This document shows positions 1-3,000 of a stretch of 10,267 nucleotides of DNA, piece after piece (position 1 is the stretch's first letter; each line of letters starts with the position of its first letter). A program made the position numbers. Source of the stretch: a virus (taxonomy: Duplodnaviria; Heunggongvirae; Uroviricota; Caudoviricetes); the IMG/VR virus record IMGVR_UViG_2671180906_000011; one strand, 5' to 3'.

Positions 1-3000
1 ATCAGATGGCTGCTTAAAAAAAGAACAAATGGTAGTGTCCGCTATTGTCAGTACACCTCAGGATACGCGAAAGCACATCCCGAACTGATAAGCGCATTCA
101 TGACCACGACGGCGGCAAATTTTGCCACGCTGACAGAGCGGGAGATTGCCGAAGCGGAACAGGTAACAACAATCAACGTTAAAACCGGAGAGGTGGAATC
201 ATGAGCGAACCAAAATTTGGTGAAAAATTTTACAAGCACAACGGACGGATCACGATTCTGCAAATAAGCGCAGCTACACCAGGCTGGTGGGTTGAAACAG
301 ACGAAGGATCCTCACCCGTGGCATCATGGGAGCTTTGTGTGCTTAGTTACCCTGACCGCGATGTGTATCAGGATATTCTGCCTGTGATATCCACTGACAA
401 AGGCATGAAACCCGTAGACATCAAAAACATGGGGTTTCAGTGCGTAATGCTCACTGAAAAAATGATGGAAGAGATGAAAAAGAACAATGCCGGATCGCTT
501 CACTGAGGTGGCAATATGACAGCACAAATTGCAGCTTACGGGCAGCTGGTGGGCGACCCGCTGGTAAAACAGAGCAGCAAGGGCACACCGGAGCCGCCAA
601 CGGAGAACTACGCAGACCTGAGAAATGCAGTAAATCGCACTTACGCAGACATGGGGCTGAGCAAATTAGCAGAGTAGGAATATCAGAACCACACCACGCA
701 GCCGGAGCAATCCGGCTTTTTTTGCGTCATTTGAAACGGTATGGAGCACTACTGGCTTTTCGTCACGGTCCGGCATAGTTACTATCTGAAACAAACAGAC
801 ACAACAGAGGAAAACGCAATGCCGATGAAATTTGATGAGATACTTAAACAGCGTGATAAATACCATGCTGACAACATGGAGACGATGAATATCACTGATT
901 ACCGCGCATTTCTGGAAACGGGGGCGCTGATTGAAAAGGATCATCATGGTTTTGTTCGTTGCGCGCTATCCGGTGAAATGCTGGCAGTAAATCCTGAACA
1001 GACAGATGCATTGATAGAATTTCTGAAAGGGATCAGAGACTGAGCACCCATACAGCACATACAGCCGGAGCAATCCGGCTTTTTGTTATTTTTTGTAAAT
1101 TATTTGTTCGTGGTTGTTCCACGTTGTTCACTGAGCGGATCGGCATATTTTACCCGAACTGAATCATGATTATTCTCGCCCGTGGTGCCAGGACGCTGGG
1201 GCCACTTTCCCGCCTGTTAATGTGCTCGCCAATATTCATTACCAGGCGGGAAAACGATCGGTGCGATTACTGATTTCCTTATGAAAAACGGTTGAGTGTT
1301 TGCCGCGTCCTGGAGTTCCTTACTTAACCCCAGGACTTTTTTTATGCAGAGAATAATCGAATTACGCCAGCAGAAAACCGCCATTAAAAATCAGATGCGC
1401 GACATGCTGGAGAACGCTGAAAAAGAAAACCGCAGTCTTAACGATGCTGAGGGCGCAAAATTTGACGAATTACGCGCTAAAGCTGAATCCCTCGATAAAG
1501 ACATTTCCCGCCTTGAAGCCATTGCAGACGAAGAGCGCAGCAAGCCAGGTAAAAGCAGCCAGACCACTGACCCCGCAGAACTACGTAACTACATTCTGAC
1601 CGGTGAAACCCGCGCATTAAGTACAGGCGTTCCCGCTGATGGTGGTTATACCGTTATCCCTGAACTGAACACCGAAATCATGCGAATGCTGGCGGATGAA
1701 TCCACCATGCGTCGCATCTGTACCGTGAAGAAAATCAGCAGCAACGAGTTTAAGCAGCTTGTTTCCGCTGGCGGTGCGACCGTTAACCACGGTGAAGAGG
1801 GTAAGGCACGCGAACAGACCAGCACCCCGCAGATTAACGAGGTGAGCATTAAGCTGTATCCGGTCTATGCGTACCCGCGCACCACACAGGAAATCGTGGA
1901 TTTTTCCGATGTGGACATCCTTTCATGGCTGACGGGTGAGATTGGCGACACCTTCACGGAAACCGAAGAAAGCGATCTGGTTGTGGGCGACGGTGACAAA
2001 AAAGCAAAAGGTTTTTTATCCGTACCCCGTGCAGAGAAGAACGACAAAGAGCGTGATTTTGGTACGTTGCAGGTAATTAAACCTTCCGAATCTCTGGCGT
2101 GGACATCTGCGGACCCGCTGATCGACCTGAAATTTGCATTACGTAAAAAATACCGCAAAAACGCGGTCTGAGTGGTTAACTCCACGACGGCGGCAAAACT
2201 TCAGAAGGTGAAGAACGCGAACGGTGATTATATCTGGCGCGACCGTTTACAGGCGGGTGATCCTGATACGTTGCTGGGCCTTCCGGTCGAATATCTGGAG
2301 TTTATGCCTGATAACGTTATTGCCCTGGGTGACTTCAAACGCGGTTACTACATTGTTGATCACGAAACAGGTGTTCGCACCAGACCGGACAACCTGACAG
2401 AACCAGGATTCATCAAAATTTTCACGCAAAAATATTTAGGCGGTGGCGTGGTGGATTCGAACGCGATCAAGATTCTGGCACTGCCGGAAGACGACGATTA
2501 ACAGCATACAGAAGGGGCTAAAAAGCCCCTTTAGTGTTTTATGGGTGAAAAAATTATGAAGAGTATGGAAATCCGGTCATCGGAAATCACCACCAGCGGA
2601 GCCGGTACGCTGACGGGCTACGTTGTTCGCTGGGATAAGCTTTCAGAACTGTTATGGGGTGAGTTTTACGAAAAATTCCAGCGGGGGGCGTTTACTGAAT
2701 GGCTTGCGGCGGGTAATGACGTTCGCGGCCTGTATGAGCATGACCACAGCATGTTACTGGGGCGCACCCGTTCCGGCACGCTGAAACTGGAAGAGGACGA
2801 AACAGGGTTACGCTTTGAACTGACCCCACCGGATACCAGTACAGGGCGCGACGTTATCGAACTGGTTAAGCGTGGGGACATCTCGGGGATGAGCTTTGGC
2901 TTTCGCTCCCGTAAGGATGTATGGGATACCACAACAGATCCATGCGTGCGCACCGTGCTGGTGGCGGAACTGTACGAAATTACCGTTACATCGGTACCGG

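Follow-up and report, generated by a model that had tools for sequence, protein, structure and literature searches.

Phased TTGT arrays in the attachment arm and at the capsid promoter of a capsid-forming phage-inducible chromosomal island: proposed operators of the excisionase AlpA

The stretch of DNA examined here, in the following denoted as the window, comprises 10,267 nucleotides of the IMG/VR virus record IMGVR_UViG_2671180906_000011. It contains the right-hand part (~8.8 kb) of a capsid-forming phage-inducible chromosomal island (PICI) of the EcCIEDL933 type (described in 10.1101/2022.09.08.507074), together with the adjoining chromosomal gene phoQ. The subject of this report is a pair of TTGT arrays phased at about one helical turn, one upstream of the capsid operon and one close to the phoQ end, which are proposed to be operators of the small island protein AlpA. 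The phoQ end of the window is matched by 5426/5426 complete E. coli genomes, most of the window by only 165. Annotated copies depict a ~15.5-kb island between roxA and phoQ, in which a tyrosine integrase, a 62-amino-acid (aa) helix-turn-helix protein, a RepA-family helicase, SSB and PerC precede the capsid module, itself composed of an HK97-type major capsid protein, protease, portal, connectors, HNH, and small and large terminase. Positions 60-4845 are 99.98% identical to a Shigella flexneri copy (L009); the phoQ-site islands L001 and L003 (O157:H7) serve as further references. The features on which the argument relies are the following.

1083-1133, + strand: phased TTGT array of five units (starts 1083, 1093, 1104, 1114, 1124), the last three perfect TTGTTC; proposed AlpA operator
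1092-1102, + strand: invariant TTTGTAAATTA box, in phase with the array and kept whichever repeat unit follows
1149-1176, + strand: predicted weak sigma-70 promoter, -35 TTTACC at 1149-1154, 16-bp spacer, -10 TATTCT at 1171-1176
1184-1343, + strand: structured leader, with a 17-bp-arm hairpin at 1206-1253 (inverted repeat I12) and a hairpin plus T7 at ~1306-1340
1344-2501, + strand: HK97-type major capsid protein gene, first of the capsid/packaging operon
8664-8693, + strand: phased array TTGTGTCTA-TTTGTTCCACG-TTGTTTCATA of the right arm (P arm of attP); proposed sites of AlpA as recombination directionality factor (RDF)
8707-8730, + strand: tandem 12-mers GGTGTAGTTAAT + GGTGTAGTCAAT, interpreted as integrase arm-type sites
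8799-8808, strand not applicable: attR crossover core GGACATATTT, overlapping the phoQ stop codon (8807-8809)
8807-10267, - strand: phoQ, chromosomal flank

The perfect TTGTTC units occupy 1104-1109, 1114-1119 and 1124-1129 of the + strand, and the 15 nucleotides TTGTTCCACGTTGTT at 1114-1128 recur in the same orientation at 8674-8688, both as stated in the initial annotation of this DNA. Its description of the second copy (8671-8690) as the first less one 10-bp unit is equally accurate, TATTTGTTC being common to 1101-1109 and 8671-8679, as is its distance of about 120 bp to the phoQ stop codon (117 bp from position 8690). The array upstream of the capsid operon exceeds that earlier description, since in-phase TTGT units are also found at 1083 and 1093. 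At both places the units are head-to-tail direct repeats on one strand with a spacing of 10-11 bp, and the array at 1083-1133 is the same in L001, L003 and L009, while the bases adjoining it on the outside vary. A CGTGG/CCACG dyad to which the same annotation had pointed is present at 1109-1113 and 1119-1123; it is probably incidental, since related islands carry CCAGG and the second copy has no dyad.

For a sequence of 10.3 kb, the expectation of an exact direct 15-mer repeat is ~0.05 (N^2/2/4^15). Only three families of repeated 15-mers free of N are present in the window, and the 1101/8671 pair is ranked as family D1 by the repeat search. With a phased chain defined as at least three TTGT at 9-12 bp spacing, the window contains two (1083-1133, five units; 8664-8693, three units), compared with a mean of 0.035 and a maximum of 1 in 200 mononucleotide shuffles. 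The hexamer TTGTTC as such is not enriched in the window (12 occurrences, 6.9 expected); the signal is its phasing and clustering, not its count.

The third unit of the capsid-side array, TTGTTCAC, agrees in seven of eight bases with the type 1 repeat TGTTCACC of the ori/crr iterons of satellite phage P4, with the pentamer TGTTC in common, and it could accordingly be asked whether the units serve as replication iterons of the P4 type, to which the replication initiator of the island binds. The repeat had been given correctly in the initial annotation, as TGTTCAC(C/A), yet it has no bearing on this island type, whose helicase is of the RepA family (AAA_25) and has AAGTGAG repeats next to its gene. 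Clusters of CTGTTCACC are restricted to sister islands, where they adjoin the gene for the P4-alpha-like primase in both orientations and differ from the arm and promoter units of those islands. The other units of the window do not match the iteron, and the P4 iterons differ in their binder (the alpha primase), location, orientation pattern and spacing. The iteron explanation was therefore rejected against the annotated P4 genome and the ori regions of the sister islands, and is regarded as hardly credible. The replication-gene repeats themselves vary with the type of the gene, AAGTGAG accompanying the RepA-family helicase and CTGTTCACC the P4-alpha-like primase (L001 8690-8890; L006 8960-9200).

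In order to place the second array relative to the attachment site, the empty K-12 site (GTGAAGTATGGGCATATTTATTCATC) was compared with attL and attR of L001 and L009. The left junction reads TATGGACATATTTTATCAATT and the right junction AAAGGACATATTTATTCATC, and from these together with the empty site the crossover core is ~GG(A/G)CATATTT; the element boundaries are established by this comparison. The array at 8664-8693 is island DNA, located ~105 bp inside the core. Proceeding towards phoQ, the right arm consists of the three TTGT units, 13 bp, the two tandem 12-mers, 68 bp and the core; in full-length copies the left arm contains this block as well, situated between the core and the start codon of int. 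Array, 12-mers and core thus follow one another in both arms, as in the mapped att regions of KplE1 and P4, which is the location expected of an RDF-type array. A proposal of the initial annotation, that the repeated sequences are att-like and mark a recombination boundary, holds in so far as 8671-8690 lies within an att arm; it is island DNA inside the boundary and not the core, and the copy at 1101-1140 is not an att site because neither a core nor integrase arm sites are found there. As a crossover repeat the TTGTTC block was rejected, being absent from the empty K-12 site and the core lying elsewhere; that absence, and the presence of the motif in related elements, also speak against a chance 15-mer match, the refuting case named in the initial annotation.

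The arrangement is not peculiar to the phoQ site. Seven E. coli islands at five integration sites carry two to three phased TGTTC-type units followed by a tandem 12-mer in both arms (the layout being less clear in the right arm of L004), and the same layout of units and 12-mer is depicted by the left arms of 13 further islands of this type (group A, see below) from other genera. The 12-mers are confined to the arms, with 2 + 2 copies, and their sequence varies between islands; the class of 12-mer follows the N-terminal Arm-DNA-bind_3 domain of the integrase, which is 80.8% identical within and 52.5% identical between classes. Tandem 12-bp arm repeats on both sides of the core are annotated in the same layout in P4 attP. 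The 12-mers are thus interpreted as the integrase arm-type sites. The TGTTY units, on the other hand, persist across all 12-mer classes, and since they are constant across integrase classes, another binder is needed for them.

A search with the capsid-protein alignment yielded 80 loci from Shigella, Proteus, Xenorhabdus, Photorhabdus, Serratia, Erwinia, Kluyvera, Kosakonia, Pantoea and others, and in 21 representative loci the region 5′ of the capsid gene could be aligned without gaps. All 21 share one layout, namely an invariant TTTGTAAAT(T)A box, then two to three phased units, a predicted -35, a predicted -10 and a structured leader. The box is found in Escherichia, Proteus, Xenorhabdus, Serratia, Erwinia, Kluyvera and others, and in both of the island groups distinguished below. 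In register with it, (G/T)TTTAC or GTTTTC lies 52-55 bp after TGTAAA, followed 16-17 bp further on by TAT(C/G/T)(T/C)T. The window's predicted promoter at this position matches the consensus in 8/12 bases, and its start site would lie near 1183. Counted from there, the three TTGTTC units would be centred at about -57, -67 and -77 and the repeats would span about -54 to -100. A strict promoter scan reported no promoter near the array, the 8/12 match falling below its threshold; such a sub-threshold promoter might be one that depends on an activator, possibly of class I type. The -35/-10 pair at 1124-1160 considered in the initial annotation is not favoured, as conservation in the 21 islands points to 1149-1154 and 1171-1176 instead. 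Likewise, TTGTTC at 1124 was tried as a -35 element and is not favoured once the 21 islands are viewed in register.

In the complete phoQ-site elements L001, L003 and L009, phased TTGT arrays are present at exactly four places each: the left arm, a position just after int, the capsid promoter and the right arm. By shuffling, 0.04 arrays would be expected per full-length element, and the restriction to four places is established for these copies. The post-int array lies 45-95 bp after the int stop codon and 280-330 bp upstream of alpA, at the following positions.

L009 4052-4101, - strand: post-int array, 5-6 TTGTT units
L001 4160-4209, - strand: post-int array, 5-6 TTGTT units
L003 4375-4434, - strand: post-int array, 5-6 TTGTT units

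Among the three islands the spacer bases of this array vary while the TTGTT cores and the 10-bp spacing are retained, a pattern that would be expected of selection on a protein-binding array. A palindrome, CAGTATGCGCATACTG, adjoins the post-int array. EcCICFT073, an island at the same site with identical integrase and AlpA, carries both arm arrays as well as the post-int array (six units, between int and alpA).

The gene alpA lies outside the window; it is located next to int in L001 and L009 and encodes the 62-aa protein (Pfam Phage_AlpA, 5e-18). AlpA alleles of 62, 73, 74 and 94 aa share an invariant core including the predicted recognition helix and wing. In order to relate the type of repeat unit to the regulator, islands with AlpA were called with a hidden Markov model built from AlpA alignment A1, and units were counted in the 44 bp after the box (promoter) and in the 160 bp before int (left arm). 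The 31 islands with a P4-like integrase and an AlpA-family protein (group A) contain on average 1.87 TGTTY in the promoter and 2.77 in the left arm, compared with 0.13 and 0.26 TACYC, respectively. In six islands of a second group (group B) the relation is reversed, with mean TACYC counts of 2.17 in the promoter and 2.0 in the left arm and mean TGTTY counts of 0.67 and 0.17. At least two TACYC in the promoter are found in 0/31 islands of the former group and in 5/6 of the latter. The group B islands integrate at a tRNA gene, encode a ~470-aa integrase and carry in the alpA position a gene for a 72-aa protein which matches Pfam HTH_17 (5.9e-10) and not AlpA; in their right arms, one or two (A/T)TAC(C/T)(C/T) units are found beside tandem GGTATCCTATA repeats. 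The representative of this protein is located as follows.

L073 (Kluyvera) 4642-4860: 72-aa HTH_17 excisionase-type protein, with homologues in L016, L055, L071, L072, L078 and L084

L055, which has the same integrase and 72-aa protein, was excluded from the motif counts. The capsid proteins of both groups are about equally distant from that of the window, and between L073 (TACYC) and L008 (TGTTY) a small protein whose gene adjoins the promoter shows 65% identity. As neither the capsid gene nor the small protein segregates with the unit, the unit type tracks the int/excisionase module and not the capsid module. Across islands, then, the co-variation is established: the site changes with the family of the factor in the arm and in the promoter alike, and the integrase switches simultaneously.

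These patterns bear on the explanation that the 15-mer is a product of chance, or a relic of a duplication or recombination between arm and promoter that has no present function. The four-place pattern in L001, L003 and L009, the recurrence of arm and promoter arrays at other sites and in other genera, the parallel TACYC pattern in a second lineage, and the retention of the spacing while spacer bases vary (at the low shuffle expectation given above) all argue against it. In its favour it can be said that the motif is short and T-rich, that TTGTTC alone is not enriched and that this island copy is decaying, as judged from a capsid nonsense codon and an SSB-PerC deletion described at the end. 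It is considered very improbable.

With moderate confidence, the TTGTTC arrays are instead read as AlpA operators, which would serve excision at att and activation of the weak capsid promoter. The initial annotation had suggested, as one of two options, a shared operator for one regulator; the co-variation of promoter and arm units in two lineages supports this, the evidence being comparative. We infer AlpA as the binder and activation, from a promoter at the predicted position, as its effect. AlpA, a winged-helix protein, would act in these satellites both as excisionase and as transcription activator, and copies of it would bind head-to-tail to direct repeats spaced by one helical turn. At the att arms (8664-8693 in the window), beside the integrase 12-mers, the AlpA array would help to assemble the excisive intasome, and 5′ of the capsid operon (1083-1133) bound AlpA would recruit or stabilise RNA polymerase. 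By this arrangement the capsid and packaging genes would be switched on only in the presence of helper-induced AlpA, the moment at which the island also excises. PICI AlpA has been reported to activate transcription, from its own promoter among others, and to be required for induction (PMC6092414). An alpA mutant of EcCIEDL933 shows neither induction nor transfer (10.1101/2022.09.08.507074). Furthermore, the AlpA of PICMI is necessary and sufficient for excision, and its predicted structure resembles TorI and Xis (PMC10803314). The islands studied here are like EcCICFT073 and PICMI in that AlpA is identical or near-identical, an activator or master switch in the one (PMC6092414) and an excision factor in the other (PMC10803314); unlike EcCICFT073, the array at the capsid promoter belongs to capsid-forming islands.

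The closest parallel in arm architecture is provided by KplE1 (CPS-53), in the attL of which the TorI sites GTTCG, GTTCG and GATCG are ~10 bp apart and followed by IntS arm sites and then intS; with the att core on one side of them and the IntS arm sites on the other, the TorI sites repress PintS (PMC2951348). IntS contains an Arm-DNA-bind_3 domain, as does the island integrase. Common to both systems would be a small winged-helix RDF, sites spaced by ~10 bp in blocks of two and three, a near-identical core sequence and an additional regulation of a promoter. In contrast to the proposed role of AlpA, TorI represses PintS and has no known late-operon target, and the island arrays occupy both arms as well as a promoter 7.5 kb distant.

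Among temperate phages and satellites the principle is familiar. In P2 Cox, 186 Apl and P4 Vis, one small protein acts on phased direct repeats at attP and at promoters and thereby links excision to transcription. Cox and Apl come from other protein families, and their main effect is the repression of lysogenic promoters. By contrast, Vis is a member of the AlpA family, labelled "excisionase and transcriptional regulator" in the P4 record, and acts on the P4 early and late-left promoters; a capsid operon is not among its targets, as P4 lacks its own capsid genes. As the excisionase-as-regulator principle is already established by Cox, Apl, Vis and TorI, the present finding extends known biology and does not overturn it.

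Several observations weigh against AlpA as the common binder. The gene for the integrase and that for the excisionase-type protein move together, so the co-variation between groups A and B alone does not tell which of the two, integrase or AlpA, is the binder, and it rests on few independent lineages. TGTTY is short and T-rich, and the promoter units are degenerate in the AlpA islands L008, L067 and L087 and in several from Xenorhabdus. The box TTTGTAAAT, the most conserved element of the promoter region, is constant across regulator types, and therefore another factor also acts there. The post-int array is oriented opposite to the capsid-promoter array. In EcCICFT073 an array was looked for upstream of the island's own late module and none was found, so that this island neither supports nor refutes the promoter role. 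The left-arm array is positioned upstream of int, yet AlpA left Pint activity in EcCICFT073 unchanged (PMC6092414). Finally, a profile search with AlpA does not reach TorI by sequence, and the TorI parallel therefore relies on fold and architecture only. Among solved structures a sequence link from AlpA to TorI or to P. aeruginosa AlpA was sought, and only 8c3t, an AlpA-family protein, was found.

The linkage of the two genes leads to the question of whether the N-terminal arm-binding domain of the integrase binds the TTGTT units as a second class of arm-type site and regulates both the capsid promoter and the int-alpA region. Such a role would suit the presence of the units in both att arms in the direct orientation typical of arm-type sites, as well as their switching together with int between the groups, and IntS of KplE1 indeed represses its own promoter via arm sites (PMC2951348). 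In that same system, though, the GTTCG units are sites of TorI and not of IntS (PMC2951348). The 12-mers already suit the role of arm site, as they track the N-domain, occur in the arms only and match the P4 layout, and TGTTY is constant across N-domain classes that are only ~50% identical. Moreover, the units are not confined to the arms, as arrays also follow int and lie upstream of the capsid operon, the latter 7.5 kb from att. To our knowledge, no integrase activates a late operon at such a distance from att. Taken together, binding by the integrase appears quite unlikely.

A different binder at the capsid promoter, sharing nothing with the att arm, has also to be weighed. Candidates are a helper late regulator, a host protein, PerC and the protein encoded directly upstream of the array, or bent or UP-element-like DNA might be acting there. 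The upstream gene is the following.

819-1043, + strand: conserved 74-aa protein, phrog_1957, directly 5′ of the array

This protein belongs to no Pfam family and is encoded near the capsid operon in 29/82 loci of both island groups. The conservation of the TTTGTAAAT box whatever the regulator type, the location of this small gene just 5′ in many islands of both groups, the absence of both protein and box from EcCICFT073, and the degenerate promoter units of several islands would all be accommodated by a separate factor. What it leaves unexplained is that TGTTY is replaced by TACYC in the promoter of precisely those islands in which the arm units switch. PerC is absent from many array-bearing islands, and the phrog_1957 protein was rejected as the binder of the variable units, given that it does not track the unit type and was detected in only 29/82 loci; it is a candidate for binding the invariant box instead. 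An explanation in which promoter and att arm have no binder in common is deemed unlikely.

The model may be widened. The excisionase itself would be the late-gene switch of capsid-forming PICIs, its operators having co-evolved at the arms and the capsid promoter in at least two lineages with unrelated excisionase families (AlpA/TGTTY and HTH_17/TACYC), so that one helper-induced protein licenses both excision and capsid synthesis; in this general form the proposal seems to us neither likely nor unlikely. In the literature searched, neither a published PICI AlpA operator sequence nor an account of how the capsid operon is switched on was found, and the operator motif, its copy at the capsid promoter and the parallel TACYC/HTH_17 lineage appear to be undescribed there. 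Recognised recently as a satellite family, capsid-forming PICIs are very widespread, and AlpA is known to be necessary for their induction. Should the arrays be AlpA operators, mutagenesis would have a defined DNA target, excision and capsid production could be modelled simply as licensed by one protein, and the phased units combined with tandem 12-mers in both arms would form a signature by which the att arms and late promoters of new islands can be located. The TACYC/HTH_17 lineage provides a natural opportunity for a specificity swap.

The leader following the predicted promoter is strongly structured. The region 1160-1360 has a minimum free energy of -79.6 kcal/mol (z = -6.8 relative to shuffles), and the terminal hairpin with its T7 covers the AGGA ribosome-binding site of the capsid gene. 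A scan of the window against Rfam at the gathering threshold gave no match, and the leader is therefore not a described RNA family. A further terminator is located at 2511-2540, between the capsid and protease genes; together with the hairpin-T7 of the leader it may exert attenuation or read-through control. The architecture is like that regulated by the antiterminator AlpA of P. aeruginosa, where the promoter site is followed by a leader with an intrinsic terminator before the first gene (PMC7969949), as the leader of the window ends in a hairpin and T run. In contrast to the island arrays, the binding element of the P. aeruginosa protein sits between -35 and -10 and not upstream. The search of solved structures with the PICI AlpA detected no sequence relationship to the P. 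aeruginosa protein, and the common name does not show homology. That the protein bound at the array also permits polymerase to read through the leader hairpin-T-run and the post-capsid terminator, in the manner of lambda Q or P. aeruginosa AlpA, is a decidedly improbable extension.

On the other side of the array, transcription of the upstream region would be ended by the following element.

1062/1063-1084, + strand: predicted intrinsic terminator, stem AGCCGGAGCAATCCGGCT followed by a T run, ending upstream (replication/accessory) transcription

This terminator (CAGCCGGAGCAATCCGGCTTTTT) is present as an exact 23-nucleotide duplicate at 699-721 and 1062-1084, flanking the gene at 819-1043.

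Some further features concern the state of this island copy. Runs of N (masked sequence) at 4846-4917 and 5714-5762 interrupt the connector/HNH and small-terminase regions. In comparison with L001 and L003, the major capsid protein gene contains an in-frame stop, W276*, at 2169-2171, and the island copy is therefore probably unable to make its own capsids. A 53-aa open reading frame at 516-677 joins the N-terminus of SSB to the C-terminus of PerC, with ~500 bp deleted relative to L001 9538-10034; L009 presumably has the same deletion because its 99.98% match extends across that stretch. Finally, GTGAC occurs four times at exact 10-bp spacing on the + strand at 8260-8294. The phoQ-site islands L001, L003 and L009 carry this array; in L005, which has AlpA and arm sites in common with them, it was not found. 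The array is possibly a packaging or other protein site.

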